Below, one piece after another: positions 25,850 through 44,756 of a stretch of DNA of 64,000 nucleotides. A model generated the notes under the pieces. The model was given only the letters and a program-made list of their open reading frames with translations, was not told the DNA's origin and did not search any database. The position numbers and the translations under genes were made by a program. The stretch's first letter is position 1. Every line of letters begins with the position of its first letter. This stretch comes from Candidatus Sericytochromatia bacterium (GTDB lineage: Bacteria; Cyanobacteriota; Sericytochromatia; UBA7694). The stretch lies in assembly GCA_018780035.1 (NCBI GenBank), contig JADMKE010000003.1, positions 210,753 through 274,752 of the forward strand, written 5' to 3'.

Positions 25850-26410
25850 TTAGTCCAAATTTGGGATATGGGCGATTCCCAATTGTTTTTTCAACTCATC
25901 ATTATACTCTGCCACAAATCGTTCTGCCTGTGGCTGTTCCAGGATATGTGAAAATTCGTCGCCAATATTACCAGCCATCATTTCTCCTGTAATCGCCATG
26001 CCCGCGCCCAAGATAATCGCTGCCAATCCCACCCAAAACGAGCCATTAAATTTGATCACATTGCCCATCATCAGGCCCCCGGCCCCAGCCAGCCCCAATC
26101 CACCCAAAGCAACACCATTGCCAATCATTTGGCCGCGGTTAATTTCATCGAGGATCTCTGAATGGTTGACCATTTTGAGCAGGGTTAAGTCGTCGATCTT
26201 TTCATTGATGCCGCGCAGGATCAGCCAATAGCTCTGCATTTGTTTGATCCGCAGGCGCTGCAATTTGTATTTTTGGACCTGCAATTGCTCGTGATTGAGC
26301 TGTTGCACGTCACTGAAGGGAAAAGAGGGCTCAGCGTACATCGGCATGGCTGGGGTGAATACCAGACAACCGAGTAAAAATGTCAGGCTCAAACGTTTGA
26401 CTGTTTGCAT
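25850..26410 (-). CDS. Secreted/membrane protein with glycine-zipper segment
   Basis: Signal peptide. GxxxG-rich hydrophobic stretch GVALGGLGLAGAGGLMMG. Confidence 0.45.
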   Translation of the reverse strand: MQTVKRLSLTFLLGCLVFTPAMPMYAEPSFPFSDVQQLNHEQLQVQKYKLQRLRIKQMQSYWLILRGINEKIDDLTLLKMVNHSEILDEINRGQMIGNGVALGGLGLAGAGGLMMGNVIKFNGSFWVGLAAIILGAGMAITGEMMAGNIGDEFSHILEQPQAERFVAEYNDELKKQLGIAHIPNLD

Positions 26411-26413
26411 AAA

Positions 26414-27524
26414 CTACACCACCGCACCCATATTTTGCCGAAGCCAGGCCTCAATAAAACCATCAATTTCTCCATCCATCACCGCATTTAAATTGGAGGT
26501 TTCAAAATCTGTGCGGTGGTCTTTGACCATTTTATACGGATGAAAGACATAAGAGCGAATCTGGCTACCCATGCTGGCTGAAACCGGCCCACCTTTAATA
26601 TCTGCCAGTTTTTGCTGATGGGCCAGACGTTCGCGCTCATAGAGTTTTGCCTTGAGGATTTTCATGGCTGTGTCTTTGTTCATGAGCTGAGATCGTTCGT
26701 TTTGACAGGCCACAACAATCCCCGATGGCAAATGGGTGACGCGCACAGCCGTTTCTACTTTATTGACGTTCTGGCCACCGGCCCCACCTGAGCGAAACGT
26801 GTCGATTTTGAGATCGACTGGGTTAATTTCGACTTCGATTCGGTCGTCAATCACGGGCGTAATCTCAACTGAAGCAAATGAGGTTTGACGCTTGCCATTG
26901 GCATTAAACGGGGAGATTCTCACCAGACGGTGGGTGCCTTTTTCGGCATTGAGCAAACCATAGGCGTGGTTGCCCGTGGCCACAAAGGTGGCACTTTTGA
27001 TCCCCGCTTCATCGCCTTCGGTCCGGGAGATCAAATCCATTTTAAATTGGCGTTTTTCGCCCCAACGGGTATACATACGCAGGAGAATTTCTGCCCAATC
27101 CTGTGCGTCGGTACCGCCTTCGCCGGAAGTGATGGTGACAATGGCTGGGGATTGGTCGTAATCCCCACTCAACATGCGCTCAACTTCCCATTGACGCAAT
27201 TCATTGCCCAAACTTTCGAGTTGGGCGAAGAGATCTGGCAAAAGGGCGCTGTCATTTTCGGCCCGCGCCATTTCTAACAATTCTTGACTCTCTTGTAGGG
27301 TGCTCTCCCAGCGAACAATGCGGCCATATTCTGTTTGCAAGGCAGTGAGATCTTGGGAGCGGCGGGCGGCCTCTTCAGGATGGTCCCAAAAACCGGGCTG
27401 CTGGGTTTCTATTTCGAGGCTTTCGATTCGGGATTGTAATTCAGCGAGGTCAAAGCGACCTCCGGATGTCTTGATACTGCGCGCTTAACTGGCGCAGGGG
27501 CTCTTCAATCTCGTGAAATTCCAT
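26414..27524 (-). CDS. prfB: Peptide chain release factor 2, with programmed +1 ribosomal frameshift
   Basis: The SPF and GGQ motifs are present. The short frame-0 [27 protein letters not shown] ends in CTT TGA C and continues in the +1 frame into the 308-aa ORF. The +1 join is frame-consistent. Confidence 0.9.
27449..27463 (-). promoter_or_regulatory. prfB: RF2 autoregulatory +1 frameshift site (internal SD-like GGAGG, then CTT TGA C)
   Basis: The minus-strand sequence reads CC GGAGG TCG CTT TGA C. It has the canonical slippery CUU-UGA-C with an SD-like element 3 nt upstream. Confidence 0.85.
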
Positions 27525-27597
27525 GGCTTCCTCGTTCTAACAGACAGATTCTCAGGTCATGCTAACAGATGGGATCCGAGAATACAAGCAGTTGAGA

Positions 27598-28164
27598 TCA
27601 GTGTTTGAGCGGGGTAAGTCCCAAATCCAGGAGGCATTTTTGAAAAAGCGCTTCAGCGGAGATCTCAGGGCTGACCTCTAAGACAAGCTCTGGATTGAGG
27701 GGCCATTCTGGTTCAATATCTATTCCCACCACATTCTGAATTTCACCCGCAAGTCCGCGGCTGTAGAGTTGTTTGGGATTTCGCTGCAAGAGTACCTCAA
27801 ATGGGGGCTTTAAAACGATTTCGGCATACCCAGGCAAATGCTGCCGGTTCCAAGCTTGAACCTCGTGAAAGAGCGAGATCGTGGCGCAGACCACATTGAT
27901 CCCCTGAATGGCGAGCATATGACTAAGATGACTGTACCGCCAAGCCAAATCCAAGCGTTCAGTTCGGGAATAGCCAGTTTTGCCAAAGACTTCGCGTAAG
28001 ACATCCCCATCGAGGTAGACCACGGCTAGTCCTTGAGTGCGAACAAACTGAAAGAGCTGTCGTCCCAGGGTGCTTTTTCCCGAGCCGGCCAACCCAGTAA
28101 TCCAATACACAGTGGGAATTTCTGAGCGCGGTTCGGGACGCTGAAACGCTGATGAAAAGGGCAT
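27598..28164 (-). CDS. cysC: Adenylylsulfate (APS) kinase
   Basis: P-loop GLAGSGKST and overall APS-kinase length and pattern. There is no adjacent ATP sulfurylase. Confidence 0.88.
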   Translation of the reverse strand: MPFSSAFQRPEPRSEIPTVYWITGLAGSGKSTLGRQLFQFVRTQGLAVVYLDGDVLREVFGKTGYSRTERLDLAWRYSHLSHMLAIQGINVVCATISLFHEVQAWNRQHLPGYAEIVLKPPFEVLLQRNPKQLYSRGLAGEIQNVVGIDIEPEWPLNPELVLEVSPEISAEALFQKCLLDLGLTPLKH

Positions 28165-28258
28165 AATGATCTGAAGTATCCCAATTGAATCAATAATACA
28201 TACATGATATGATACCCCGAAATGCGTTTTTTGATAACTTCGATTTACATTAGGTTCA

Positions 28259-30043
28259 ATGAATATTAGTCAAGTTTTTGATCCCCGATTTACGCCTCCA
28301 CTCCATCTCGATACGGATCCACCACTGGCTACAGATGTTTTTTTAATTGTTTTAGATGCCCATTCTTCCATCCAAATTGCTTATCAATGGTGTTTGGCTT
28401 TTTTGCATCAGTTTACCCAATCCGATCAGGTAAGTTTATTGATACTGGCAGACCCTCTGCATATTGGTCATTTACTTGATCATTTAATGAACAAACTTGA
28501 ACAATTGGAATTGCCCAATTCCGCGCCAGATTTAGTGATCTGGTCAGAAGAAATTGCAGAAACAGATGAACCAGCTTTATATGCCCGCTGTTTGGCATAT
28601 TTGGATTGCAATTCAAGAGATGAAATTTCACTTCCATTACTCAAAGCTATTTTTATGAATAAGCAAGTGGTTTGTTTTAAAGGTAAAGCAACAGAAGAGT
28701 GGATAAAACCCGGATATGGGTATTTTTTAAATCACTTAACTGATACGGAAACGGCTTATCGTCAGGCGTTATTTGAGCTTTATCACCGTTTGCTCAAACT
28801 TTATCCGCGCAAACTGGCAAGCAATTATTTAGCAAAAAATCCACATTTTACTTTGCCGTTTGAGATCGAACTCAATATTCAATCATTCAGTCCCACAGAT
28901 TTTAGAACACAAACAATGGGGATCTATGAACAAGGCTATGTAAAAGAAGCTGCCATGCTTCTGGTCTATTGGGCCCAGAACCACCCGCTGGGTATCTCTG
29001 CGGTTATCGATAATAATAACTTCTGGTTGAAAATATTAAAAGATGCCAGATTATATGAACCATTAAAAATTATAAACAAACATATAAATGCAAATAATCC
29101 AGAAAATGAATTTCTTTTATTGGCAGAAATTCTTATTCAAGAAGGAAATATTGAAGAAGCGGTTCAAAATTATCACAAAGTATTAAGCATAAATCCTTAT
29201 GAAATGAATGCCAAAGTAGGATTTGAGAAAGCCAATTTAATCCTTAAGCGAAGATCAGAAATTCCGCCCATATTTCTAAATGGCATCGGTAACCCAGCAA
29301 GTGAGTATATTAGTATCTTACTCTCTCGGGGTCTGGATATCCCGCGAATGAGTATTTCATCGGGAATCGGAATCTTTGAACTGGTCGTTGATGTGTATTC
29401 TCTTGAAAAATTAGCGCAAGGGGGCTGCTTGGCCAAAGACCATTTATCGCCAAGTGATGTAAATCTTTTTGCGCTTACCCGTTATTTAGACAAAATGATT
29501 TTGGGGCTGAGAGATCCCCGTGGCAGTTTGGTTTCTTGTGTTGTCTATGAAAGTTTTTTGAACAGCGAAGACAAAGCGAGTAAAGACGAAAATCTATACA
29601 CTGCTCGCGCCATGTTTTCAGATAAAGCTGAGTGGATAGACCATTTTTTATCACTAAATTTTCATCAAAAATGCGATAAAATGATAGAAGATGGTACGTT
29701 TGAACATTATTTGAATGATGTTGTTAACTGGTTGGATGTTGCTCAATATTATCCTATTTTCATTTACACCTTTGAAGAGTTTAAACAGGATGAAATGGGG
29801 GTAATTCAAAATATTTTAAACTATTATGACCTCTCTTCAGATTATTTTCGATTTCCCTTTACACAGGCAGATCGCCAAGGTTCCGTCTTTAGCAGCACTC
29901 CTGATACGGCCTCTCCAAATTACACTTTGCGCCGGGGAAATCCCTATGAATGGCACAGTGTTTTGACACCTGCTCAATTAGAGAAAACCACTTCTCTCAT
30001 GCCCCATGGCCTCTGTAAGAAGATGGGGTGGTTAGAAATTTAA
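28259..30043 (+). CDS. Large fusion protein: N-terminal Rossmann-like/TPR-like region + C-terminal sulfotransferase-like domain
   Basis: The C-terminal half carries an RDPR (3'-phosphate-binding-like) motif and a terminal RRGNPYEWHSV resembling the sulfotransferase RKG..G.W motif. It is AT-rich and a paralogue of the next gene. Confidence 0.55.
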   Translation: MNISQVFDPRFTPPLHLDTDPPLATDVFLIVLDAHSSIQIAYQWCLAFLHQFTQSDQVSLLILADPLHIGHLLDHLMNKLEQLELPNSAPDLVIWSEEIAETDEPALYARCLAYLDCNSRDEISLPLLKAIFMNKQVVCFKGKATEEWIKPGYGYFLNHLTDTETAYRQALFELYHRLLKLYPRKLASNYLAKNPHFTLPFEIELNIQSFSPTDFRTQTMGIYEQGYVKEAAMLLVYWAQNHPLGISAVIDNNNFWLKILKDARLYEPLKIINKHINANNPENEFLLLAEILIQEGNIEEAVQNYHKVLSINPYEMNAKVGFEKANLILKRRSEIPPIFLNGIGNPASEYISILLSRGLDIPRMSISSGIGIFELVVDVYSLEKLAQGGCLAKDHLSPSDVNLFALTRYLDKMILGLRDPRGSLVSCVVYESFLNSEDKASKDENLYTARAMFSDKAEWIDHFLSLNFHQKCDKMIEDGTFEHYLNDVVNWLDVAQYYPIFIYTFEEFKQDEMGVIQNILNYYDLSSDYFRFPFTQADRQGSVFSSTPDTASPNYTLRRGNPYEWHSVLTPAQLEKTTSLMPHGLCKKMGWLEI

Positions 30044-31851
30044 TGACACAACAGTCACTTATTCAAGAAACTTCTGAATGGATTGAAAAATACCAACCTC
30101 TTTCTGTGCCCCCGATTGCAAAATGGGCAGAACAGTTCCAAAGTGTTTTTTTGGTTATTGACTCCTGTTTTGAATCCCTTGAATTGGCAGAACTGTGTCG
30201 CCAATTTCTTGAAACGCATCTGGAAAATAAGTCCACGGCACTCATCATCGCCCGAAGTGCGCGTGAAACAATGGATTTGACGATACCCATTCACACTTGT
30301 TTAATCCAAATTAATAATAGCCAAAATCCAACTGATTTTTTTAAGCTGCTTGCCAGTGTGCATGCCTTGATTTTGCCCAACTTAAGAGAAGAGATTCAAT
30401 CAGAGGCTCTTGCTGCCTTATTAATGAATCGTCCTGTGCTCTTGTATCAGATCCCCCAGACGCAATATGATTGGGGAGAAGGTCTTTTAATACCCACTCA
30501 GATCGGATTTAAAGGGCTCTTGAACAGCTTTATTTCGCGCAGAGAATTATTAAGACCCCGTCAGCTTTTGCTGGATGTTCCAAATCTTAAAGCCGCTGTC
30601 TTTGCTTCAGGATTATTGGCGTATTTTCCCAATCGACCCGATTTGGAAACCATTGAAGCCTATATGAACGCTGGATATTTTGAACAGGCAGGGGTTTTAG
30701 CCGTAACTTTGTTGCGCAATTTACATTGGTTAAATGAAGAGTGGCAGCCAGAAAAAGGGCTGAAAATTATGAAAGCCTGTCTTTTGGGGAAAAAATATTT
30801 TGAGGCAATTAAAATTGGTCGAAAAATACTTTCATTCATGCCTGAAAATAGTGCTTTGGCACTGTATTTGGCCGTCGCTTTTTGGGGGATAAAAGACTTT
30901 ATTCAGGCCCAACTATTTTTAGAGAGAAGTCTATCTGCTGAAGATAAAACAGAGACAAAGAAAGAATTTGAGAATATTATTTTAGTTGACGAATTAAATA
31001 TTAAAATAAATAAATCTATTTCAAAATGTCTTGAATTACCAATAATTATTTTTAACCCTATTTCCAGGTTGTCAGCGTCTCATTTTATCGCCCAAACCTT
31101 ATCTCAATCTTTATCATTGCCACTTGTTCATCTCTCTACTGGCTTGGAAATAGGAACTTCAAATACGCTTCATTTTGAACGTACAGCAGAGTTGATTTAT
31201 AAAAAGCAAGGTGCTCTGGCCTTTGACCGCTGGCCGGCAACAGAAACCAATCACTATTTTTTACTTAAATTTTTCAAAAGTATGGTTGTACATGTGCGAG
31301 ACCCACGCAGCATTTTGGTCTCTTTGGGTATTTACCTCCATCATCTCTTAGAGCTGGATAAAAAAGCAGAGCTTCCAACTCAGTTTCAGAGATCGCTCAA
31401 ATTGATTCATTGGGATCTGCGTTTGCGCAGTTTTTCAGCCATGGTTCCCGGCCCAAAACAGATAGAATATGGCTTGGAATCGGGTCTTTTCCAAGCTTAT
31501 TTAAATGAAATATTGGCTTGGCTAGAATTAGAAAAAACCTTTCCATCTAGCTTTAAAATCTTGATTACAAGCTATGAGCAATTGATAAAAAATCAGGCAT
31601 CTTACTTTAAACAAATCATTGATTTTTATCAAATTAACCCCGATTTTTTTGACTATCAGGTAGAATCAATTAATAGTTTGAATTCTGTTTTTGGTCCTAC
31701 TCCAAACCCTGATTCCCCCCATTATTTTTTTCGCAGGGGTGATCCAAATGAATGGACCCAATTTGTTTCTGAATCCCAAAAAAAGCAGATGACAAATGCA
31801 ATTCCCAATGCCTTGTTTGAACGCTTTGAATGGGATCCCGCGCCGAGATAA
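30043..31851 (+). CDS. Paralogous fusion protein with C-terminal sulfotransferase-like domain
   Basis: Motifs VHVRDPRSILVS and FFRRGDPNEWTQF match the upstream paralogue, and the N-terminal segments also align (SVFLVIDSCFESLE vs DVFLIVLDAHSSIQ). TAATG stop/start overlap. An alternative GTG start lies at 30028. Confidence 0.55.
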   Translation: MTQQSLIQETSEWIEKYQPLSVPPIAKWAEQFQSVFLVIDSCFESLELAELCRQFLETHLENKSTALIIARSARETMDLTIPIHTCLIQINNSQNPTDFFKLLASVHALILPNLREEIQSEALAALLMNRPVLLYQIPQTQYDWGEGLLIPTQIGFKGLLNSFISRRELLRPRQLLLDVPNLKAAVFASGLLAYFPNRPDLETIEAYMNAGYFEQAGVLAVTLLRNLHWLNEEWQPEKGLKIMKACLLGKKYFEAIKIGRKILSFMPENSALALYLAVAFWGIKDFIQAQLFLERSLSAEDKTETKKEFENIILVDELNIKINKSISKCLELPIIIFNPISRLSASHFIAQTLSQSLSLPLVHLSTGLEIGTSNTLHFERTAELIYKKQGALAFDRWPATETNHYFLLKFFKSMVVHVRDPRSILVSLGIYLHHLLELDKKAELPTQFQRSLKLIHWDLRLRSFSAMVPGPKQIEYGLESGLFQAYLNEILAWLELEKTFPSSFKILITSYEQLIKNQASYFKQIIDFYQINPDFFDYQVESINSLNSVFGPTPNPDSPHYFFRRGDPNEWTQFVSESQKKQMTNAIPNALFERFEWDPAPR

Positions 31852-31882
31852 TTAAAGCCAATTTTAAGCTGAGAAGGAAGAA

Positions 31883-32641
31883 TTGATGATGAAAACCGAA
31901 TGGAATTATACTGAACTCGCAGAATCTTATTTAGAGCGTCCTGATTATTCGGAAGCTGCAGTCCATGAAATGCTCGCCCAGATGCAATTGCCCGAAAAAG
32001 CCAAGGTCTGTGATGTGGGAGCCGGCGTTGCTCATTTGACCAAAGTTCTGGCTCGCAGCGGTTTGGTGGTTGATGCGGTTGAGCCCAACGACCGGATGCG
32101 TGAATTGGGCCAAGTTCAAACCCGCTCCTTTGATCAGGTTACCTGGTTTGAAGGTACGGGAGAGGTGACGGGGCGCCCAGATTCGACGTATCAACTGGTT
32201 ACTTTTGGTTCTTCTTTTAATGTCACAGATCGTTTGAAGGCCCTGGCTGAAACCCGTCGAATTTTGGTGCCCGCAGGTTGGTTTGCCTGTATGTGGAACC
32301 ACCGAAATCTCGAAGACCCCATCCAAAAGTCGATTGAAAATGTGATAATAAAGTCCATTCCCAATTATGCTTACGGAACCCGTCGGGAGGACCAGCGCCA
32401 ATTTCTCGAAGAGAGTGGCTTTTTTGACACAGTCTTCGCTTTAGAAGGCAATGTTATCCACCGTCAAAGCCGAGAAGCGTGTTTGACGGCTTGGCGTTCG
32501 CATGCCACTTTGCAAAGACAAGCGGGGGACCGTTTCTCTCAGGTCATTCAAGACATTGATGCGCATTTAGAAACATTGGGCCTAAAGGAGTTAGAAATTC
32601 CTTACACCACACGCATTTGGTTCGGCTCTGTAAAGGCTTAA
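31883..32641 (+). CDS. Class I SAM-dependent methyltransferase
   Basis: Motif I VCDVGAGVAHLT and motif post-I VVDAVEPN. Length is 252 aa. Confidence 0.78.
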   Translation: MMMKTEWNYTELAESYLERPDYSEAAVHEMLAQMQLPEKAKVCDVGAGVAHLTKVLARSGLVVDAVEPNDRMRELGQVQTRSFDQVTWFEGTGEVTGRPDSTYQLVTFGSSFNVTDRLKALAETRRILVPAGWFACMWNHRNLEDPIQKSIENVIIKSIPNYAYGTRREDQRQFLEESGFFDTVFALEGNVIHRQSREACLTAWRSHATLQRQAGDRFSQVIQDIDAHLETLGLKELEIPYTTRIWFGSVKA

Positions 32642-32649
32642 CTTCTTTC

Positions 32650-34953
32650 ATGCGTAGCAAAGCAGAAACGCTTCAATTTTTACACGGTCAACTCAGTTCA
32701 GCAACCGTTTTGCCGCTTTACTGTTTTAACCTAAATCAATGGCAAAACCAACGAGAACAGATTTGGCTTGACTTGGCCGAGTTAACTTGGACCAAGTTGC
32801 CTGTGATCGTTCGCAGCAGTGCTCTTAACGAAGACAGTGAGCTCACGTCTATGGCGGGACATTATTGTTCAGTTTTAAATGTCTCTGGAAAATATGCCTT
32901 GGAACAGGCGATTGAGCAGGTTGCAGCTGGCTTTCAAGGTCGCACGGATGCCGACCAAATTTTTATTCAACCCATGTTGAGTCAAATCGCTTTAAGTGGG
33001 GTGGCTTTTAGTCAGGAGCCCAGTACGGGCATTCCCTGTTTGGTCTTTAATTACCAGGAATGTAGCCAAGATACGACGGCGGTTACAGGGGGGCATTCAA
33101 ATGAACTCAATACCTGGCATTATTACCTTCACAACAATCCCACTCCTCCCCAATCCAGGTTCAGGCCTCTGCTGGATTTGGTCAGCGAATTACAGCTAAA
33201 ACTGGGAATTTCTGCCCTGGATTTGGAAGTGGCTTTGCTGCAAAATGGCCAATGGGTACTTTTGCAAGTCCGACCCTTGGTGCTAGAAAACAGCTTGGAT
33301 GGCAGTCAGCACCTCAACCACATGCTTGAATTACAGGGTTTTCTCAAACCGATGCAGTCCCCCCATCCTTTTTTATATGGCCAGCACACAGTTTATGGTG
33401 TGATGCCTGATTGGAATCCTGCTGAGATCATCGGGATTCGGCCACGACCTTTGGCCCGCAGTTTATACCAAGAGTTGATTACCGATAGTATTTGGGCCTA
33501 TCAACGTCACAATTATGGCTACCGCAATTTGCGCAGTTTCCCCTTGATGGTTGATTTGGGGGGCTGTCCTTATATTGATGTGAGGGTCAGCTTTAACTCA
33601 TTTATTCCAGCCACTTTGCCACCAGCATTGGCTGAAAAATTGGCCGATTATTATCTCAAGCGTTTGGTCGAAACACCCAGTTACCACGACAAAGTTGAGT
33701 TTGAAATTATTTATTCTTGTTATACCCTGGATTTGCCCCAACGCCTAAAAGCCCTTCAGGATCATGGATTTAGCCAGGAGGAATCTGATTTATTGGCAGA
33801 AAGTTTGCGACTTTTAACCAATAAAATTTTGCATCAAGAAACCGGACTTTGGCAAAAAGATATCGCCAAACTCGAGATCTTGACCCAACGGCGAGAAACT
33901 ATCTGCTCTGCAGATCTTGGGCCGATTGATCGCATTTATTGGTTGCTCGAAGATGGCAAACGTTATGGCACTTTGCCTTTTGCCGGCCTCGCACGGGCAG
34001 GATTTATTGCTGTTCAAATGCTCAATTCGTTGGTGCAAATTGGTGCCTTGGACCCTTCCGAACGCTCGCTATTTATGCAAAGTTTGGATACCGTCAGCAG
34101 CCGGATTCAACGCGATTTTCAAGCAATGAACCGCAGCGATTTTTTAAAGATCTATGGCCATCTTCGGCCAGGCACCTATGATATTCTCTCAGAGCGCTAT
34201 GATCAGGCGCCAGATCGCTATTTTGGCGAAGCCATACAACCCACCGTTCACCCCCCATTTAGCCTGCGGCTCGAACAGCTCAAGCTGATCCGTTCTCATC
34301 TCCAAGAACATGGTTTAAATTTAGATGTTTTGGAGCTCTTCGACTTTATGAAAGCGGCAATTGAAGGCCGTGAATACGCCAAATTTTTATTTACCCGCAA
34401 TCTCAGCGATGTTTTGGAAGAAATTGCAGGGCTCGGCAGACAAGCTGGGATGAGCAGAGAAGATTGTTCTTTTTTGGATATTCAATCCCTGCTGCGTTTG
34501 TTAAATACCAGTGGCGATCTCAACCAAGCGATTAAACACAGTGTGGAAGCAGGCAAAGCCCAGTACAGCTTAACCCAATCCCTGTTATTGCCCCCTCTGA
34601 TTACCCAACCTGAAGATATCTGGCAATTTGAACTTCAGCCAGGTGAGCCCAATTTTATTACGCTCAAACGGGCCAAAGGCCCTGTCTGCTTTGTGGGCGC
34701 TGCGCCTGAAAGCCTGAAGGGAACGATCTTGCTCATACCCAGTGCCGATCCTGGTTACGATTGGATTTTTGGCTATGGGATTGCGGGTTTGATCACGCTT
34801 TATGGCGGAGTCAATTCACATATGGCGATACGGGCAGGTGAAATGGGCATTCCCGCCGTGATCGGCGCAGGCGAAGTGCTCTATTCCCAATGGCAAAAAG
34901 CCCGTGAATTGGAGCTGGATTGTGCCACGCGGCAGGTCAGGGTTTTAGCATGA
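32650..34953 (+). CDS. PEP-synthase/pyruvate-phosphate-dikinase-like His-phosphotransferase lacking the C-terminal PEP/pyruvate TIM-barrel domain
   Basis: The N-terminal PPDK_N-type ATP-grasp region (LPVIVRSSALNEDSELTSMAGHYCSVLNV) is paired with a C-terminal PEP-utilisers mobile His domain (GGVNSHMAIRAGEMGIPAVIGAG). There is no PEP-utilizers_C TIM barrel. Confidence 0.78.
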   Translation: MRSKAETLQFLHGQLSSATVLPLYCFNLNQWQNQREQIWLDLAELTWTKLPVIVRSSALNEDSELTSMAGHYCSVLNVSGKYALEQAIEQVAAGFQGRTDADQIFIQPMLSQIALSGVAFSQEPSTGIPCLVFNYQECSQDTTAVTGGHSNELNTWHYYLHNNPTPPQSRFRPLLDLVSELQLKLGISALDLEVALLQNGQWVLLQVRPLVLENSLDGSQHLNHMLELQGFLKPMQSPHPFLYGQHTVYGVMPDWNPAEIIGIRPRPLARSLYQELITDSIWAYQRHNYGYRNLRSFPLMVDLGGCPYIDVRVSFNSFIPATLPPALAEKLADYYLKRLVETPSYHDKVEFEIIYSCYTLDLPQRLKALQDHGFSQEESDLLAESLRLLTNKILHQETGLWQKDIAKLEILTQRRETICSADLGPIDRIYWLLEDGKRYGTLPFAGLARAGFIAVQMLNSLVQIGALDPSERSLFMQSLDTVSSRIQRDFQAMNRSDFLKIYGHLRPGTYDILSERYDQAPDRYFGEAIQPTVHPPFSLRLEQLKLIRSHLQEHGLNLDVLELFDFMKAAIEGREYAKFLFTRNLSDVLEEIAGLGRQAGMSREDCSFLDIQSLLRLLNTSGDLNQAIKHSVEAGKAQYSLTQSLLLPPLITQPEDIWQFELQPGEPNFITLKRAKGPVCFVGAAPESLKGTILLIPSADPGYDWIFGYGIAGLITLYGGVNSHMAIRAGEMGIPAVIGAGEVLYSQWQKARELELDCATRQVRVLA

Positions 34954-35570
34954 CTTCCAGTTTAAACCAACACCCTTGGCTGGCAATCACCCAACGCGTT
35001 GAGATCGATGCCAAAACGGGTGAACGGCGAGATGCGCTTGATCAGCGCTGGGTTGATTTTATTTTGCTTGCAGGATTTTTGCCTTTGCTTTTACCCAACT
35101 CGCTTGCTGCTGCTCAAGCCCTTTTAGCGGCGTGTCGGGTTCAAGGTATTGTGTTAACTGGCGGCAATAGTCTGCAGAGCTGTGGTGGCAATGCACCTGA
35201 GCGAGATGAATTGGAGTTTTGGCTTCTGAATCAGGCTCCAAAACAGCATTGGCCACTGCTGGGCGTCTGCCGAGGAATGCAAGTCATTCAGAGCCATTTG
35301 GGCGTTGCCTTGGAGCCTGTCAGTGACCAGATTTTAGCCCTGCAAACGATTCAGATCTCAGGAAAAAACCAAGTCGTGAATAGTTATCACAGTTGGGGGA
35401 CGCGTGTAGAACACCCCGAACTCAAGACCTGGGCTCAAACGGAGGATGGGATGATTAAAGCGATTAAACATATCGAGCGACCCTGGTGGGGGATTATGTG
35501 GCATCCCGAACGCCTGACCCCCTTTCGCAGCGAAGATTTGACCTTGTTTCGTGAAATCTTTAAGCCATGA
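34950..35570 (+). CDS. Class I glutamine amidotransferase-like / peptidase C26 gamma-glutamyl hydrolase family protein
   Basis: Nucleophile elbow GVCRGMQ and the His in WHPE are present. The ATGA start/stop overlap with the upstream gene suggests translational coupling. Confidence 0.75.
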   Translation: MTSSLNQHPWLAITQRVEIDAKTGERRDALDQRWVDFILLAGFLPLLLPNSLAAAQALLAACRVQGIVLTGGNSLQSCGGNAPERDELEFWLLNQAPKQHWPLLGVCRGMQVIQSHLGVALEPVSDQILALQTIQISGKNQVVNSYHSWGTRVEHPELKTWAQTEDGMIKAIKHIERPWWGIMWHPERLTPFRSEDLTLFREIFKP

Positions 35571-36343
35571 GCCCCGTTCAACATGGCATCATTCTGGCTG
35601 CTGGCAGGGGCAGCCGCTTGGGAGCGATGACAGAAGCCCTGCCGAAGGGGCTGGTTGAATTGGGGGGGCGCCCACTTTTAAACTGGCAAATCGACGCTCT
35701 GCGCCACTCGGGATTGAAAGATTTGGGGATTGTGCGGGGATACCGGGCCGAGGCCTTGTCCTTCCTCGGTTTGCAAACATTTGAGAACCCCCGCTGGCAA
35801 CAGACCCAGATGGTCAGGTCTTTGGCCTGTGCAGGTGATTGGTTGCAGCAATACCCGTGTTTGCTGAGCTATTCTGATATTTTGACTTCAGCAGCCTGTT
35901 TGCGGGCTTTGGCTGATTGTCCCGGTGAATTGGTGATCAGTTCAAATCAGGGCTGGCGCGCCCTTTGGCAGGCCCGTTTTGCCGATCCTCTGGCAGATGC
36001 TGAGAGCTTTAAAACCAATGGACAAGGACAATTGCGTGAAATCGGTGCCCGTGCCAAGACCTTGGATGAGATCGAAGGACAGTATATGGGCCTGCTCAAA
36101 ATCACCCCCCAGGCCTGGAAATGGATTTCAAATTTATTGGCAGAAATGGAGCCGGAGCAGGCCGACCGCTTGGATATGACCAGTTTATTACAAACTTTGC
36201 TTCAGCGGGGATATCCCATTCAGGTTTTGCCCGTAAATGCACCTTGGCTGGAAATAGATACCTGCGAAGATCTGGCGTATTACCAACATTGTTTAAAAAT
36301 TGGCAAGCTGACACTGCCCATGCAAGACCCGGTGCTGTGGTAA
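35567..36343 (+). CDS. LicC-like nucleotidyltransferase (cytidylyltransferase for a phospho-headgroup)
   Basis: N-terminal GIILAAGRGSRLG and C-terminal W.EIDT.EDL are characteristic of phosphocholine/aminoethylphosphonate cytidylyltransferase-type NTP transferases. ATGA overlap with the upstream gene. Confidence 0.72.
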   Translation: MSPVQHGIILAAGRGSRLGAMTEALPKGLVELGGRPLLNWQIDALRHSGLKDLGIVRGYRAEALSFLGLQTFENPRWQQTQMVRSLACAGDWLQQYPCLLSYSDILTSAACLRALADCPGELVISSNQGWRALWQARFADPLADAESFKTNGQGQLREIGARAKTLDEIEGQYMGLLKITPQAWKWISNLLAEMEPEQADRLDMTSLLQTLLQRGYPIQVLPVNAPWLEIDTCEDLAYYQHCLKIGKLTLPMQDPVLW

Positions 36344-36379: not shown

Positions 36380-36997
36380 ATGAAAATCCTGGCCGTTTGT
36401 GGTACTACCCACCACGAAAGCAATTCAGGCCAAATCACTGAAATCATTGCCGCCGCGGCACGCTCGGCTGGGGCTGAAGTGGATGTGTTGGATTTATTGG
36501 CTTCGCCCTTGCCGCTTTTTCGCACAGATCAGAGTTATGAAAATGACCAGATTGTGACCGAGGTTCGCCAAGCCTGCCAAGCAGCAGATGCCTTTATCTT
36601 GGTCTCTCCGGAGTACCACGGTTGTATGACTGGTTGGATGAAAAATTTTCTCGATTTTCACTACCATGAATTTGCGGGCAAACTCTTTGTCCTGGCCGCT
36701 ACCACAGGCGGTAGCTTGGGAGTGAGCTGTATTACTCAAATGCGTGTGGCAGTTCAGCATTGCCATGGTTGGTCCTTGCCTTATCAAGCGGCCGCCCGCG
36801 AAGCGGATTTTGACAGCAAAGGGCAATTGGCCAATGATTCAGTGCGTGAGCGTTTGGAGCGCATGGGCCGCGATTTGGTGATCTATGGAAAACTCTTGCG
36901 CGACCAATTCACAATTGACCGCCAGGGGGCCCTTGAAACCCATGACACCCCCCATGAGTGGGGCTTTGCTGGCTGGTATTCCCGCGGTTCAGATTAA
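36380..36997 (+). CDS. NAD(P)H-dependent FMN reductase (flavodoxin-like fold)
   Basis: Pattern MKIL.V.GT....S......I.......G.E....L. and LVSPEYHG. GGAGG RBS. Confidence 0.75.
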   Translation: MKILAVCGTTHHESNSGQITEIIAAAARSAGAEVDVLDLLASPLPLFRTDQSYENDQIVTEVRQACQAADAFILVSPEYHGCMTGWMKNFLDFHYHEFAGKLFVLAATTGGSLGVSCITQMRVAVQHCHGWSLPYQAAAREADFDSKGQLANDSVRERLERMGRDLVIYGKLLRDQFTIDRQGALETHDTPHEWGFAGWYSRGSD

Positions 36998-37015: not shown

Positions 37016-38644
37016 GTGTGGGAATTCGGCTGGTTAAAAAAACACCCTTGGACGCTGGTATTAGCGATTCTGGGGCTTTGCATACATTTGGGGCTGACCC
37101 TACAATTAATCCCGCTCGCAAGGCAATTGGAGCCTTTGCTTCGCGAATTTCAACTTTCAGCTTTTGTCTCTTTTATTGCGCTTTTGTTGGGGATTTATGC
37201 CGCCAAAGGGCTTTTTGATTGGCTCCAACGGGTTGCCTGGAGCCAGTTGGTCTTGCAGCGCAGCATGGAGCGCCGCTTGGACCTTTACAGCTATTTATTG
37301 CAAATGCCACTGAGCCGTTGGCAAAATGAGCAAAGTGGCGATCTTCAAGCCCGACTGACTGTGGATCTGCAAGAGCTTGAAAATGCCAGTTTAAACCAAC
37401 TCAGCCGATTTTTTCCCAATTTGCTGCAGGTAATTGTGCTCATATTCTATCTGATCTGGCTCAATCCGATTCTGACTTTGGTGACAGCCTTGCTATTGCC
37501 TTTGGGATCCCTCAGTTTGAATTTAACCAGCTTGCGATTGCGGCACTGGTCCGAAACTTTGCAAACGGAGCGGGGACAACTCTTTGCTGAAATCGCTGAC
37601 AGTTTACAGGCCTTGCCCAGTCTTTGGCCCTTGCAGGTCAGCTCATGGCTCGAAAACAGGCTGAATCAGATCCAAAAAAAATTAATGCTCGCCCAACGCA
37701 AACAAGTCGCTTGGCGGGCCCTGCAAGGACCCCTGCTGGGTTGGGTTCAAGCTTTGGCTCTGGGTTTGGTGCTGCTAAGTGGGGCTTGGCAGGTGCAAAG
37801 TGGCAGGGCGAGCGTCGCCGATTTGCTGGCCTTTGGCACAGCTTTGGCGCTGAGCATTGATCCTGTCTTGGCCTGTGTCGAAGCCTGGGGTCTGGTTCAA
37901 AGTGCTCTGCCTGCTCAAAAGAGACTGGCGGAGCTCTTGCCAACACAGCGACAGCCCTCTGCCTCCGTCTTCACTCTGATGCCCCAAGAAAGTCCCCATT
38001 TACTTGAAATCAGATCGGTTGATTATCGCTATCCTGGCCAGCCTGCCCTGTTTCAAAACCTCAATCTGGTCTTGCCTGCCCATAAATGGAGCGCATTACT
38101 TGGAGCTTCGGGGGGGGGCAAATCCACCCTTTTGCATCTTTTGGCTGATGTTTTGCCGATGCAAACAGGCCAGCGATTGATACGAGAGGATCTTCACAAG
38201 GCCGTCTTGGTGCCCCAAAAATCGGCCTTCCTCAATTTAAGTGTGGGGGAAAATCTCTGTTTGGGTCGAGACATTAACGCCGATGACTTGGATGAAGTCT
38301 TGGAAATCTGTCAAATCAACACCTTTCTCAATAATTTGCAGTTGGGGTTGGCCAGCCCGATGGGCAATCAGGGCAGCCTCTTTTCTGGGGGTGAGCGACA
38401 GCGCATCGCTCTGGCAAGGGCTTTATTGGCCAAGCCCCAGCTTTTGCTATTAGACGAAGCCACCTCTGAATTGGACCCACTGACAGAGGGCAATTTGCTG
38501 AAAGCCCTTAAACGAATGCGGCCGGATTTGACCTGCCTGTGGGTGAGCCACCGCCCTGAGAGTTTGCAAGAAGTCGAATACTTTCTCTCGCTCACACATG
38601 GTACAATCAGCGTAATCGACAGCAGAGACGGATCACATGTTTGA
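37016..38644 (+). CDS. ABC exporter, fused permease-ATPase
   Basis: An N-terminal 6-TM exporter domain is followed by an NBD with Walker A GASGGGKST, signature FSGGERQRIALARAL and Walker B LLLLDEATS. It has a GTG start. Confidence 0.82.
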   Translation: MWEFGWLKKHPWTLVLAILGLCIHLGLTLQLIPLARQLEPLLREFQLSAFVSFIALLLGIYAAKGLFDWLQRVAWSQLVLQRSMERRLDLYSYLLQMPLSRWQNEQSGDLQARLTVDLQELENASLNQLSRFFPNLLQVIVLIFYLIWLNPILTLVTALLLPLGSLSLNLTSLRLRHWSETLQTERGQLFAEIADSLQALPSLWPLQVSSWLENRLNQIQKKLMLAQRKQVAWRALQGPLLGWVQALALGLVLLSGAWQVQSGRASVADLLAFGTALALSIDPVLACVEAWGLVQSALPAQKRLAELLPTQRQPSASVFTLMPQESPHLLEIRSVDYRYPGQPALFQNLNLVLPAHKWSALLGASGGGKSTLLHLLADVLPMQTGQRLIREDLHKAVLVPQKSAFLNLSVGENLCLGRDINADDLDEVLEICQINTFLNNLQLGLASPMGNQGSLFSGGERQRIALARALLAKPQLLLLDEATSELDPLTEGNLLKALKRMRPDLTCLWVSHRPESLQEVEYFLSLTHGTISVIDSRDGSHV

Positions 38645-38930
38645 ATCGGATTTTTCGCAATTGCCTGTACAGGGGTTCATACCCAGGCCAAAAGCATGGC
38701 CCCAAAACTTTCCCCAAGAACTCGTAAGCCCTGAAAAAAGCTTGCGAACTCGGGCATTGGGAGAATTGGCCGAAAGCAAGTCAACGCATAAAATCGCTGT
38801 GCTGGTAGAATTGCTCAAACACGAACAAGATCCAGACTTATACCTTCAGGCCAAAGCACTTTTATTGCAATTGTCAGACTCTGCCAAGACCCATTCCCGT
38901 TGGGACCCCTATGGCCAATTTCGGATCTGA
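38637..38930 (+). CDS. Small HEAT-repeat-like protein
   Basis: 97 aa. An ATGTTTGA overlap with the ABC gene stop suggests coupling. The HEAT-like motif is LRTRALGELAESKSTHKIAVLVELLKHEQDPDLYLQA. Confidence 0.4.
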   Translation: MFESDFSQLPVQGFIPRPKAWPQNFPQELVSPEKSLRTRALGELAESKSTHKIAVLVELLKHEQDPDLYLQAKALLLQLSDSAKTHSRWDPYGQFRI

Positions 38931-38947
38931 GAAACAGGCCCAGAGAA

Positions 38948-41002
38948 ATGCCTAAAAATACCTCTTTGATGGCACGCAGGCACCTGCGCGAGGCAGATGC
39001 CTTGAAACATTTGGGCCAATTTGATGCCGCAGAACGCCTTTACCGGCGGATTTTGCGCCTGGATCCCCAGTCTTTTGAAGCTGCTTACCAATTGGGTTTG
39101 GTCGCAGAAAAAAAAGGATTCCCAGATCGGGCAGCCCACTTTCACCGCCGTGCCATTGTTCACAATCGTCGCTATGCCCCACCTTATCTCCGACTGGGCC
39201 AGATTTACGAGCTTAACAATGATTTTTACAAGGCCTTGATGGCGTATGGTGAATATTTATTGCGAATTCCCAAAAGTGTAAGTGGTGATGCCTATCTGCG
39301 GTTTGCCCGAATGTTGACACTTTTGGAACAAGACGAAATGGCATTGCCCTTTTATCTGCAATCGCTGGAATTTATGCCTGCAGATGCCACCACCTATTTT
39401 TTGTTGGCAGAGACCTTGCAAAACCGGGGGGATTTGGATGGGGCACTTGAATGTTTTATGGCCTTGGGTAAAATCAACCCGATTGCATTGCCGCTGATTT
39501 CTTTTTTTATGGGCTATTTGCTCGAAAAAAATGGCGAATATACCGCCGCCCTTAAATGTTATGATCAGGCCCTGGAACATCCTGGGCAATTACAGATCTG
39601 GAAACTCAAACGGGATTTGGCCTACCCGCTGATTATGCAAAGCCGCGAAGAAATTGAAGCCTTTGAGAAAAAACTCAAAAAAGTCCTTTTCGATTTCCGC
39701 TTTGCCCTCTTAAAAAACCCTTTGAGCCCCAACAACCAAAATCACTATTATTTCAGCATGTTGCAGTTGAATATTGTACATATTGCCTACCATCACTACA
39801 ATCCTTTGCCTTTGCGGCGTGAATTTGCCGAGTTATTGCCTCAGTTTTTGCCACCTGTCAATTTGCCTGCTTGGCAACCGCGCAGCCATGCTGGTCATTT
39901 GATTCATCTCGGCCTGATCTGTGCTCCGAAAAGCCTAAATATGGCCTTTGCCTATGCGGGTGCGCTCTTTAATGAATTGGACCCTTCCCGCTACCGGATC
40001 ACCGTCTTTTGTCATTCGCCCAAAGTCAGCCAGATTTTTAACCCCCAGAACCGCTATTGCTTTAACCATCCCAATGCCAGTTATCGGGTGATCTCGCGGG
40101 ATTATGCTGAAGCAGCCAAACAGATTCGGGCAGAAGAATTGGATTTGCTGATGTTTACCGAACCCAGCTGGGACTCGTTTCAATATTCGCTCTCCTCTCT
40201 GCGCTTGGCCCGCGCCCAGGGCACGTCTTGGATGAATCCCGGCACCACCGGCATGCCCGAGATGGACTATTTTTTCTCTAGCGAATTAATGGAGCGCCCA
40301 GGCGCTGAAAGTGATTATTCAGAAACCCTGGTCAAATTTAAAACCCTGCCCTCTCATTTGCCGCTCTATCCCTTTCCAGAGGATCCTGTTTCCCGTTCGG
40401 ATTATGGCTTGGAAGGGGTTAAACGCCTCTATAGCTGTCCTCAGACTTTGCTCAAATTCCACCCGGATTTTGATCCGATTGTGGCTGAAATCTTGCGCCG
40501 TGACCCCGAGGGCCATCTCGCGCTGTTGGCGACCAAACAGCAGGGACAGCTCTGCGATATTTTGCTCAAACGCTTTCAAACAACCATTCCAGACGTGATG
40601 GATCGCATTTGGGTTTTACCCGAAATGCCCGTGCCAGACTTTTTGGGACTCTTGCGCGTCAGTGATGTGGTCCTTGATCCGCTTTATTATGGTGGGGGCA
40701 CCACCACTTACCAGGCCATGGCTTATGGTATTCCGATCATCACCCTGCCCACCGAACGGATGGTCGGACGAATCACGTCTGCCCTTTACAAAAAGATGGG
40801 GCTCACCGACACCGTCGCCACAGATCCCGAAAACTATATCCAATTGGCCAATCGCTATGCCATGAACCCCGAATTGCGGGCCGGCATTGTCGAAGGGACT
40901 TTGGCTCAGAGCATTTTATTTGAAGACCGGGCGATCATTGCTGAATTTTCAGAATTTATGGAAGATGTTGTCGCGGGGCGGCGCACCCCCAGATCCAATT
41001 AA
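38948..41002 (+). CDS. TPR-repeat glycosyltransferase, GT41 (O-GlcNAc-transferase/SPINDLY-like) C-terminal domain
   Basis: N-terminal TPRs. The C-terminal LDPLYYGGGTTTYQAMAYGIPIITLP matches the OGT-family catalytic region. The start could also be 38900. Confidence 0.68.
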   Translation: MPKNTSLMARRHLREADALKHLGQFDAAERLYRRILRLDPQSFEAAYQLGLVAEKKGFPDRAAHFHRRAIVHNRRYAPPYLRLGQIYELNNDFYKALMAYGEYLLRIPKSVSGDAYLRFARMLTLLEQDEMALPFYLQSLEFMPADATTYFLLAETLQNRGDLDGALECFMALGKINPIALPLISFFMGYLLEKNGEYTAALKCYDQALEHPGQLQIWKLKRDLAYPLIMQSREEIEAFEKKLKKVLFDFRFALLKNPLSPNNQNHYYFSMLQLNIVHIAYHHYNPLPLRREFAELLPQFLPPVNLPAWQPRSHAGHLIHLGLICAPKSLNMAFAYAGALFNELDPSRYRITVFCHSPKVSQIFNPQNRYCFNHPNASYRVISRDYAEAAKQIRAEELDLLMFTEPSWDSFQYSLSSLRLARAQGTSWMNPGTTGMPEMDYFFSSELMERPGAESDYSETLVKFKTLPSHLPLYPFPEDPVSRSDYGLEGVKRLYSCPQTLLKFHPDFDPIVAEILRRDPEGHLALLATKQQGQLCDILLKRFQTTIPDVMDRIWVLPEMPVPDFLGLLRVSDVVLDPLYYGGGTTTYQAMAYGIPIITLPTERMVGRITSALYKKMGLTDTVATDPENYIQLANRYAMNPELRAGIVEGTLAQSILFEDRAIIAEFSEFMEDVVAGRRTPRSN

Positions 41003-43969: not shown

Positions 43970-44506
43970 TCAATTTTGTTTTGAACCACACCATTGAGAT
44001 TCGCAGGGAATACCATCATTGTCTCCATCTGTTTTGGGATTGGGACAATTTTTTAGGTAGAAAAGGGCTTCTTGACAGGAGGTCATCTGAGAACAATATT
44101 CTTTGCCTTCACAGCGGTAAGGGCTCTCCCCAAGAGGTGTGGGTGTGGCGATTGGAAGCGTTGAGGTGGGGCTTGGTTTTGCACTTGGCGTGGGAGAAGG
44201 GGTGGATAAGGGAATTGTCGGAGAGGGCTGTGACGGAGAGGGTGTGGACAATTGAGAGGGTACAGCCGAGGCAGAAGGTTGCAAGCTGGGCGAAAATGAA
44301 GGGGTTGGCTGTGTGCTTGCAATTACTTGAGGAGAAGGTGTGTGGTCTGTTTGGGGGGGGGTAAAAGCACCAAGCGATGAGAGTGATGTGGATTCTGACG
44401 GGCCAGAACAGGCGCTCAAACTCAGATTTAGGCAAAATAGACCAGGCAGAACAAGCAACGTTAAATTGCGAAGCAAGGGCAAAAATTGGATGAGCATGGG
44501 CTTCAT
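43970..44506 (-). CDS. Secreted Pro/Ser/Thr-rich protein with C-terminal Excalibur calcium-binding domain
   Basis: Signal peptide with lipobox (LSLSAC), a PS(T)-rich linker, and the C-terminal DGDNDGIPCESQWC (Excalibur DxDxDGxxCE). It sits 21 nt upstream of the large GT on the same strand. Confidence 0.62.
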   Translation of the reverse strand: MKPMLIQFLPLLRNLTLLVLPGLFCLNLSLSACSGPSESTSLSSLGAFTPPQTDHTPSPQVIASTQPTPSFSPSLQPSASAVPSQLSTPSPSQPSPTIPLSTPSPTPSAKPSPTSTLPIATPTPLGESPYRCEGKEYCSQMTSCQEALFYLKNCPNPKTDGDNDGIPCESQWCGSKQN

Positions 44507-44756
44507 TTTAAACATATCGCCAGATCTTGCATAGTCTTTTTTGAACAAAAATGATTCAGCGATCTCCAATTTTGGGGTGAAAAATTGCATAAGAAATGGT
44601 TAAGATTAGATTAAATTTAAAAAAGATGGGAACTTAATTTTGCCCCTTGCGTCGCCCCCGTGTATGGCAGCAATAGTCTAAAAAAATGCTGATTGATTCG
44701 GTGGTATAAGCGCTGAGGCTTTATCCTGATAGCAGGTTCAAGACTGAGTCAAGGGG

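Follow-up and report, generated by a model that had tools for sequence, protein, structure and literature searches.

The AT-rich segment at positions 28259-31851 of a 64,000-nucleotide stretch of Candidatus Sericytochromatia contig JADMKE010000003.1 (this whole stretch is called the window below) is a long-resident, lineage-specific and fast-evolving pair of sulfotransferase-fold genes that is old and not a fresh foreign insert. It consists of exactly two intact open reading frames (ORFs), paralogue A (STa) followed by paralogue B (STb), which are translationally coupled (Table 1). Judged from their sequences and those of the neighbouring genes, STa and STb may be phosphoramidate transferases with two acceptor specificities, a proposal whose chances we consider to be evenly balanced. 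A first-pass annotation had read the segment as the horizontally acquired core of an island in which a sulfotransferase-like gene was duplicated after arrival; recent horizontal transfer is largely refuted by the comparisons that we describe here.

The compositional anomaly itself was borne out. The GC content of the segment was 0.381, compared to 0.518 ± 0.019 (minimum 0.481) for 89 background windows of the same length (3.6 kb), giving z = -7.3, and its composition-corrected tetranucleotide usage correlated with that of the rest of the window at r = 0.81, compared to 0.92 ± 0.016 for the background windows (z = -7.0). In a 1-kb profile, GC ranged from 0.46 to 0.59 throughout the 64-kb window except at 28-32 kb, where it was 0.36-0.41; at 300-bp resolution, the drop began at ~28.15 kb and ended at ~31.9 kb. 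All three codon positions were low in the pair, with an overall GC of 0.377 for STa (0.48/0.33/0.33 at first, second and third codon positions; GC1/2/3) and ~0.383 for STb (0.46/0.34/0.34), compared to GC1/2/3 of ~0.58/0.42/0.55 for the remaining genes of the window. The proposed AT-rich codon usage was confirmed by these GC3 values (0.33-0.34 versus ~0.55) and by an elevated Karlin codon bias B of 0.414 for STa and 0.370 for STb (background 0.276 ± 0.061; genes of similar length 0.18-0.26). Phe, Tyr, Met, Ile, Asn and Lys (FYMINK) residues made up a fraction of 0.298 of the STa and STb proteins versus 0.205. Other details of the earlier description did not hold. The flanking genes had a GC content of 49-53% rather than about 55%, and the reported long A/T runs amounted to just six, each of 7 nt (1.4 expected from shuffles). 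The supposedly gradual recovery of GC was a return to ~0.52 within ~300 bp at 31.9 kb, after which GC was mildly low (0.44-0.49) across the methyltransferase and pyruvate phosphate dikinase (PPDK)-like genes to ~34.6 kb.

Both paralogues were present at the same locus in four related contigs (L001, L002/L003 and L004), preceded by the same upstream neighbours (DUF4330, PfkB, a hypothetical gene, release factor 2 [RF2] and a kinase) and followed by the same downstream neighbours (the methyltransferase, the PPDK-like gene, an amidotransferase and further genes). The GC dip was repeated in each of these contigs, where GC3 was 0.30-0.37 for the pair compared to 0.50-0.65 for the flanks. Across L001-L004, flank proteins were 83-99% identical to those of the window (83-96% in L001); identities in L004, L002 and L001 were 93, 91 and 59%, respectively, for STa and 89, 76 and 40%, respectively, for STb. 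Synonymous divergence (dS; Nei-Gojobori) from L004 was 0.41 and 0.26 for the two genes of the pair and 0.26-0.48 for their neighbours. Compared to L001, dS was saturated everywhere (1.1 to >2.6; flanks 1.1-1.7), and compared to L002 it was ~2-fold higher for the whole cluster than for the upstream flank. The ratio of non-synonymous to synonymous divergence (dN/dS) among five related Sericytochromatia contigs was 0.07-0.16 for STa and 0.21-0.26 for STb, values that reflect purifying selection. Based on these ratios and on dS values like those of the adjacent genes, STa and STb are functional genes that have been inherited together with their neighbours and whose protein sequences evolve fast. 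Syntenic homologues with the same GC dip, an outcome that the first-pass annotation had itself named as contrary to its interpretation, speak against recent horizontal acquisition, and because both paralogues occur in all of L001-L004, the duplication predates the divergence of these genomes.

We polarised third-position differences between the window and L004 by parsimony, using L002 as the outgroup. STa had 36 AT>GC and 37 GC>AT changes, the combined pair had 69 and 56 (p = 0.28), and there was no clear amelioration signal in the pair. Weighing against great age, STb alone had 33 AT>GC and 19 GC>AT changes, and the test has modest power, with parsimony inflating AT>GC counts in AT-rich sequence. 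Only 2 and 4 matches to the two proteins came from a word-indexed search across 5.8 billion proteins, and the full-length matches, at 100% identity in a Candidatus Sericytochromatia metagenome-assembled genome (MAG), were annotated 'sulfotransferase domain-containing protein'. In an exhaustive hidden Markov model (HMM) search of 1.84 billion representatives, which gave 1112 matches, the N-terminal 200 residues were covered only by the STa/STb family and by cluster P0007 ('type C', also from Sericytochromatia); the other matches comprised the tetratricopeptide repeat (TPR)-like plus sulfotransferase part or the sulfotransferase part alone. A GTDB scan with the A/B alignment found no relative. 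These searches thus gave no full-architecture homologues outside Sericytochromatia, and since the three-domain architecture occurs only in Sericytochromatia-type sequences, the donor lineage expected by the first-pass annotation cannot be named. At the segment and neighbouring genes, we found no tRNA, Rfam element or integrase/transposase domain, and a search for repeats flanking the segment gave only short chance repeats.

One close relative, the GTDB representative L007, lacks the pair. Its flanks were 95-99% identical to those of the window (dS 0.23-0.50), and blastn aligned window positions 26001-28110 with L007 6981-9090 at 88.7% and window positions 32953-35652 with L007 10301-13000 at 80.6%. 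In L007, the intervening 4.8 kb gives way to 1.2 kb that comprises the 5' end of the kinase gene, a methyltransferase gene whose product is 37% identical and the 5' end of the glutamine-kinase gene. The kinase, glutamine kinase, hydrolase and cytidylyltransferase are kept around L007 8261-10300. In the genes adjoining this cassette, dS between the window and L007 rose to 1.04 (glutamine kinase) and 0.91 (hydrolase). Because exactly this pair is missing from L007, the locus behaves as a variable cassette, and in this respect the earlier notion of an island core stands, without the recent foreign acquisition that it included. Because L001, the most divergent genome, has the pair, the parsimonious conclusion is that the pair was ancestral to these genomes and was then lost or swapped by recombination in L007.

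Low GC also recurred in relatives at other loci. The type C gene (P0007), at an unrelated locus, was 8.6 GC points under its flanks, and P0015, a related sulfotransferase-like gene at locus L005, was 4.1 points under its flanks. Among 23 loci of the wider sulfotransferase family from unrelated metagenomes, 22 had a sulfotransferase gene with a higher AT content than its surroundings; the mean GC difference was -6.1 points (Wilcoxon p = 2e-6). Thus, low GC is a stable property of a gene family that is near compositional equilibrium, weakly codon-adapted and FYMINK-enriched. This is in keeping with an accessory surface-decoration cassette that relatives gain, lose or exchange by recombination. 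If the segment were instead a recently acquired island core from an AT-rich donor, duplicated after arrival, then the strong GC and tetranucleotide anomaly, the missing pair at the same site in L007, the mild AT>GC excess in STb and the low GC of the family wherever it is found, as expected of horizontally circulating genes, would all find a place. We consider this explanation highly improbable, however, as both paralogues and the same dip occur in L001-L004, including a genome with saturated flank dS, the dS values of the pair match those of neighbouring genes, STa is at compositional equilibrium, no mobility genes, tRNAs or repeats were found in our searches, and the full architecture was confined to Sericytochromatia among the 1.84 billion representatives. 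For genome scanning, a sharp, well-bounded GC trough can therefore be an old, stably AT-rich accessory cassette, and this locus is a worked example against reading such dips as recent transfer. O-antigen and capsule loci, which are established as low-GC, hypervariable regions between conserved flanks, provide a parallel. As in those loci, GC is depressed here, presence or absence differs between close relatives, divergence peaks in the specificity genes (STb at 40% identity to L001 with flanks at 83-96%), and the cluster coalesces more deeply than its flanks. Unlike in those loci, the strong dip is limited to two transferase genes, and neither a wzx/wzy-type cassette exchange nor a donor was identified.

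STb most likely starts at ATG 30043, which overlaps the STa stop codon (TAATG), rather than at the GTG at 30028 of the mechanically called ORF; this choice follows from the overlap and from the gene calls of orthologues. STa and STb aligned by BLASTP at 25% identity over residues 21-591 (E = 3e-36), in agreement with the whole-length paralogy claimed earlier, and scored 34.6 and 29.5 bits against Pfam PF00685 Sulfotransfer_1 (cut-off 22). An AlphaFold2 (AF2) model based on a 99-sequence alignment had a predicted local distance difference test (pLDDT) score of 76 overall and >90 in the TPR-like and sulfotransferase domains; a model from 6 sequences had a pLDDT of 49, and the larger alignment mended these two domains but not residues 97-201. 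Foldseek matched the model to SULTs with probability 1.0. Of the domains assigned in the first pass, the TPR-like helices and the C-terminal sulfotransferase fold stood up to this analysis, and a Rossmann-like N-terminal region is at most suggested by a predicted beta-alpha-beta pattern of moderate to low confidence. This N-terminal domain might resemble one half of a GT-B glycosyltransferase. In the intergenic region upstream of STa, consensus matches predict a plus-strand promoter (TTGAAT-17-TATGAT with an upstream TG, 28185-28213) and a minus-strand promoter (TTATCA-17-TATCAT, 28237-28209).

The nucleotide-binding half of the sulfotransferase domain was the most conserved part of the two proteins, with 34% identity between the paralogues and 66-77% between distant orthologues. 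Residues R418, S426, R558 and G560, which bind the 3'-phosphate, were invariant in 9/9 family members and present in 86-90 of 90 family representatives. The phosphosulfate-binding (PSB) loop lysine (PKSGT/S), found in 82 of the 90 representatives, is replaced by Asn345 in STa, by Asn in type C and by Arg in STb (Tyr in P0006). At the position of the catalytic histidine, 89/90 representatives have His and STa keeps His395, and all five STb orthologues have Arg. The TPR-like domain and an insert in the sulfotransferase domain were the most divergent parts (18-20% identity between paralogues and 27-47% between distant orthologues), and this divergence, set against the conserved nucleotide-binding half, makes the two acceptor specificities that had been suggested plausible. 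The description of the genes as sulfotransferase-like holds for the fold, with both Pfam scores above cut-off, but the label sulfotransferase is doubtful in view of the genes next to the pair and of the changed catalytic residues.

Compared to sulfotransferases that use 3'-phosphoadenosine 5'-phosphosulfate (PAPS; PF00685, including SULT1B1, SULT7A1 and SULT1A1), STa and STb keep the 3'-phosphate-binding motifs RDPR...S and RRG...EW and have a similar spacing of loop, histidine and 3'-phosphate motif (50/23/8 residues; ~60/22/8 in SULT1A1). They differ by the loop Lys replacements, the His-to-Arg replacement in STb, an extra N-terminal 330 aa and a genomic context of phosphoramidate pathway rather than sulfate-activation genes. 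The closest relatives of the TPR-like plus sulfotransferase part were TPR-sulfotransferase proteins of cyanobacteria and other bacteria (for example Microcoleus WP_333410603.1, 'tetratricopeptide repeat protein'; E values of 1e-33 to 1e-20), which likewise have helical repeats followed by a sulfotransferase domain. Unlike STa and STb, these proteins have the canonical PKSGS and His, have no N-terminal alpha/beta domain and were not seen beside glutamine-kinase modules.

The genes around the pair resemble those that build an activated phosphoramidate donor in Campylobacter jejuni, where Cj1415-Cj1418 convert glutamine, ATP and CTP to CDP-phosphoramidate 3'-phosphate, and the adjacent genes Cj1421 and Cj1422 transfer O-methyl phosphoramidate (MeOPN) to two different sugars (PMC11800397, PMC3907429). 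The product of the divergently transcribed kinase gene scored 184.8 bits against NCBIfam NF004041 PRK05541 (cut-off 127) and 101.5 bits against TIGR00455 apsK (cut-off 138.7). Four kinase domains fused to glutamine kinases gave the same result, with PRK05541 scores of 170-191 bits and apsK scores below cut-off, as did the standalone L001 and L005 kinases, and a true CysNC, that of L005, showed the opposite profile. From these profiles, we infer that the PRK05541-type kinase subfamily corresponds to Cj1415 and not to true adenosine 5'-phosphosulfate (APS) kinases. The glutamine kinase, for which the NCBI model implies a start at 32650 and a length of 767 aa, was assigned by NF004508 and by homologues at 50-69% identity, several of which are named 'glutamine kinase' by JGI. 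The amidotransferase-like hydrolase matched NF045546 at 6e-31 and 108 bits (cut-off 250), with the next family sixteen orders of magnitude behind, and is a candidate gamma-glutamyl-CDP-amidate hydrolase of the Cj1417 type. The nucleotidyltransferase is a candidate CTP:phosphoglutamine cytidylyltransferase (Cj1416 type), and the methyltransferase is a candidate phosphoramidate O-methylase, the counterpart of Cj1419/Cj1420. PDB sequence searches with the neighbouring genes found generic relatives only, with no Cj14xx entry among them. Within the 64-kb window, we found no sulfate-activation genes, including ATP sulfurylase. Further downstream, co-directional genes for a flavin mononucleotide (FMN) reductase, an ATP-binding cassette (ABC) exporter and a TPR-GT41 glycosyltransferase are syntenic in L002/L003 and probably serve the same surface-glycan function. 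A special link of the pair to TPR-GT41 was rejected, as the GT41 proteins near the A/B genes and near type C were only 23% identical over 168 aa.

In the mechanism that we propose, the operon, with the pair at its head, would make an activated donor for O-methyl-phosphoramidate decoration. The product of the donor pathway would be 3'-phospho-CDP-amidate, a structural analogue of PAPS, which each paralogue could bind with the 3'-phosphate-binding elements that it has conserved in its sulfotransferase fold. Each protein would then move phosphoramidate onto a hydroxyl of a surface glycan, with one acceptor site per paralogue chosen by the divergent TPR-like domain and sulfotransferase insert, and the methyltransferase would add the O-methyl group. 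The likeness to C. jejuni Cj1415-Cj1422 extends to genes or candidate genes for all donor functions (glutamine kinase, candidate hydrolase, candidate cytidylyltransferase, APS-kinase-like 3'-kinase and methyltransferase) and to two adjacent transferase candidates, here paralogous and of ~600 aa, which we liken to Cj1421/Cj1422 as these are described in the literature. The modification locus is variable here, as L007 indicates, and variability of the C. jejuni MeOPN locus drives phage escape (PMC3417653). The systems differ in host, here a non-photosynthetic relative of cyanobacteria, in gene order and in the recognisable Sulfotransfer_1 fold with TPR-like and N-terminal domains of the candidates. 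They also differ in the poly-G phase-variation tracts, which are absent here; a search for poly-G/C tracts in the segment found none, and phase variation via simple repeats was rejected on this basis.

Glutamine kinase and MeOPN are described in reviews as Campylobacter-specific (PMC9561416, PMC6429109), and as of 2025 the chemistry by which MeOPN is transferred had yet to be settled (PMC12409886). We found >7549 glutamine kinase homologues, many fused to an APS-kinase-type domain, and a GTDB scan with a glutamine-kinase alignment gave matches in at least 596 species, which represent many phyla. From these species, we surveyed 80 glutamine-kinase loci (L007-L086). Module homologues of the methyltransferase were present in 60, of the hydrolase in 62 and of the cytidylyltransferase in 65, and the kinase was present in at least 67, fused to the glutamine kinase in 39. 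Sulfotransferase-fold genes, belonging to two other families or matching the A/B family weakly, stood beside the glutamine kinase in 49/79 loci, at a median gap of ~2 kb and in at least two tandem copies at nine loci; the density of sulfotransferase-fold ORFs within 5 kb of the glutamine kinase was 7 times that at 5-10 kb from it (p = 2e-9). A Fisher test of kinase presence versus sulfotransferase-fold presence across loci was not significant, as loci without the kinase were too few. Genes of the A/B type adjoined the module in Sericytochromatia and otherwise just in L005, from the 'Cyanobacteria JACYMC01' MAG, whose operon runs from kinase, methyltransferase, glutamine kinase, hydrolase and cytidylyltransferase to P0015. 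Of the first other family, 10/10 members tested matched Pfam Sulfotransfer_3, nine of them above cut-off. For the 'comp2' family, a PDB profile search gave five matches, all to the sulfotransferases StaL, Teg12 and Teg14, at E values of only ~1. No NCBIfam model matched STa, STb, P0015 or the other module-associated sulfotransferase-fold families. It is tentative, with somewhat more doubt than support on our reckoning, that phosphoramidate decoration is widespread beyond Campylobacter and that its transfer is carried out by sulfotransferase-fold enzymes, with 3'-phospho-CDP-amidate replacing PAPS, after three or more independent recruitments of such enzymes (the A/B type, the Sulfotransfer_3-like family and a StaL/Teg-like family). 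If so, the Sericytochromatia pair would be a diverged, two-specificity version, possibly acting as a heteromer with complementary catalytic residues. STa, STb and the sulfotransferase-fold genes at the 49 loci are concrete, testable candidates for the phosphoramidate transfer step, and many genes named 'sulfotransferase' or 'APS kinase' beside glutamine kinases may be misnamed.

As side observations on these families, Sulfotransfer_3-like members have ~450 aa and a hydrophobic tail, the second other family has a ~300-aa core with GLFGTGRxY and YRHPLDSLLTNW motifs, and both often occur as tandem paralogue pairs (for example, L015 14375-17390, L052 12604-15337 and L035 5327-7685).

Several results count against phosphoramidate transfer by STa and STb. 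The L007 locus has the donor pathway and no sulfotransferase-like gene. Both canonical residues, Lys and His, are kept in P0015, meaning that the replacements seen in STa and STb are no signature of a new donor, and genuine cysNC and cysD genes abut P0015 in L005 (15151-17976, minus strand), which confounds the functional inference. An hhalign comparison of the A/B sulfotransferase domain with the two other module-associated families was not significant. The closest sulfotransferase-domain relatives outside the clade (P0008, P0010 and P0012) and type C are located away from glutamine-kinase modules, and a metagenome scan with the A2 alignment found only 38 loci of the wider sulfotransferase family (22-37% identity), none of which has donor-pathway genes. 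Two of these relatives have contexts of another kind, as P0007 directly follows a 2-oxoglutarate-Fe(II) oxygenase gene near TauE (L125 6848-9440) and P0010 adjoins a PhyH dioxygenase gene (L127 4696-6593), a hint that these members of the family have another role, linked to oxygenases.

The main rival explanation is that STa and STb are genuine PAPS-dependent sulfotransferases acting on the same glycan, with PAPS supplied by genes elsewhere in the genome. The Sulfotransfer_1 scores and SULT fold agree with this explanation, as do the canonical PKSGS and RDPRQ..S motifs of the wider family (553 representatives, E<1e-10), the general lack of linkage between that family and glutamine-kinase genes, and the cysNC/cysD neighbours of the related gene in L005. 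We nevertheless regard it as unlikely. The catalytic Lys is lost in STa and the catalytic His in all STb orthologues, the sole 'APS kinase' in the vicinity is of the subfamily found fused to glutamine kinases and scores below the apsK cut-off, ATP sulfurylase is missing from the 64 kb, other sulfotransferase-fold families are strongly enriched beside glutamine kinase, and the phosphoramidate operon would be left without any transferase. The complementary loss of canonical catalytic residues together with strict conservation of the nucleotide-binding residues could also mean that STa, STb or both have no catalytic activity or work only as a pair, as adaptor or regulatory subunits that carry TPRs and have retained binding of a 3'-phosphonucleotide; in one possible variant, an A/B heteromer would take the His from STa and a basic loop residue from STb. 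Translational coupling of the two genes and TPR-like domains, which are typical of protein-protein interaction, would suit such an arrangement. Purifying selection acts along the whole length of both proteins, however, type C occurs singly, and we know of no sulfotransferase active site that is shared between subunits, making this explanation improbable.

Table 1. Positions of the gene pair and of neighbouring features in the window.
Feature	Position	Strand	Remarks
Paralogue A (STa, 594 aa)	28259..30043	+	Pfam, BLASTP, AF2 and Foldseek results
STa domains	N-terminal alpha/beta 28259-28843; TPR-like helical 28844-29257; sulfotransferase-fold 29258-30040	+	
Paralogue B (STb, 602 aa from ATG 30043)	30043..31851	+	Three-domain layout as in STa; sulfotransferase-fold ~31024-31848
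Divergent intergenic region, AT-rich, 94 bp	28165..28258	.	Promoter-like sites in both directions, consensus matches only
APS-kinase-like gene, Cj1415-type (putative cytidine diphosphoramidate 3'-kinase)	27598..28164	-	Divergent from the pair
S-adenosylmethionine-dependent methyltransferase	31883..32641	+	Pfam Methyltransf_11, Methyltransf_25; likely start ATG 31886/31889
Glutamine kinase homologue (PPDK-like, Cj1418 type)	32617..34953	+	NCBIfam NF004508, 924 bits (cut-off 501)
Class-I amidotransferase-like hydrolase	34920..35570	+	Pfam Peptidase_C26; NCBIfam NF045546 GCDPHdlase best
Nucleotidyltransferase	35567..36343	+	Pfam NTP_transf_3 (general); closest structure CTP:phosphocholine cytidylyltransferase
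FMN reductase	36380-36997	+	
MsbA/HepA-like ABC exporter	37016-38644	+	
TPR-GT41 glycosyltransferase	38900-41002	+	
Variable cassette	28110..32953	.	Without nucleotide match in L007; 1.2 kb there instead

Other genes of the window had features of their own. Upstream of the pair, the prfB (RF2) ORF (26414-27340, minus strand) extends upstream in another frame (27341-27560), and GTCAAAG at 27449-27455 of the plus strand reads CTTTGAC in the coding direction, with GGAGG 3 nt upstream, a classic +1 programmed frameshift site. A gene at 54736-63285 (minus strand) encodes a 2849-aa hybrid nonribosomal peptide synthetase-polyketide synthase with TubC_N docking, C, A, PCP, KS, AT, KR, ACP and TE domains, and a clostripain-like C11 peptidase gene (53555-54739) lies directly downstream of it. 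The gene for a small Excalibur calcium-binding domain protein (43970-44590, minus strand) is unusual in that its GC2 of 0.546 exceeds its GC1 of 0.459 (GC3 0.42), and a cytochrome P450 gene (19635-20978, minus strand) is the GC-richest gene of the neighbourhood, with a GC of 0.584 and a GC3 of 0.70.

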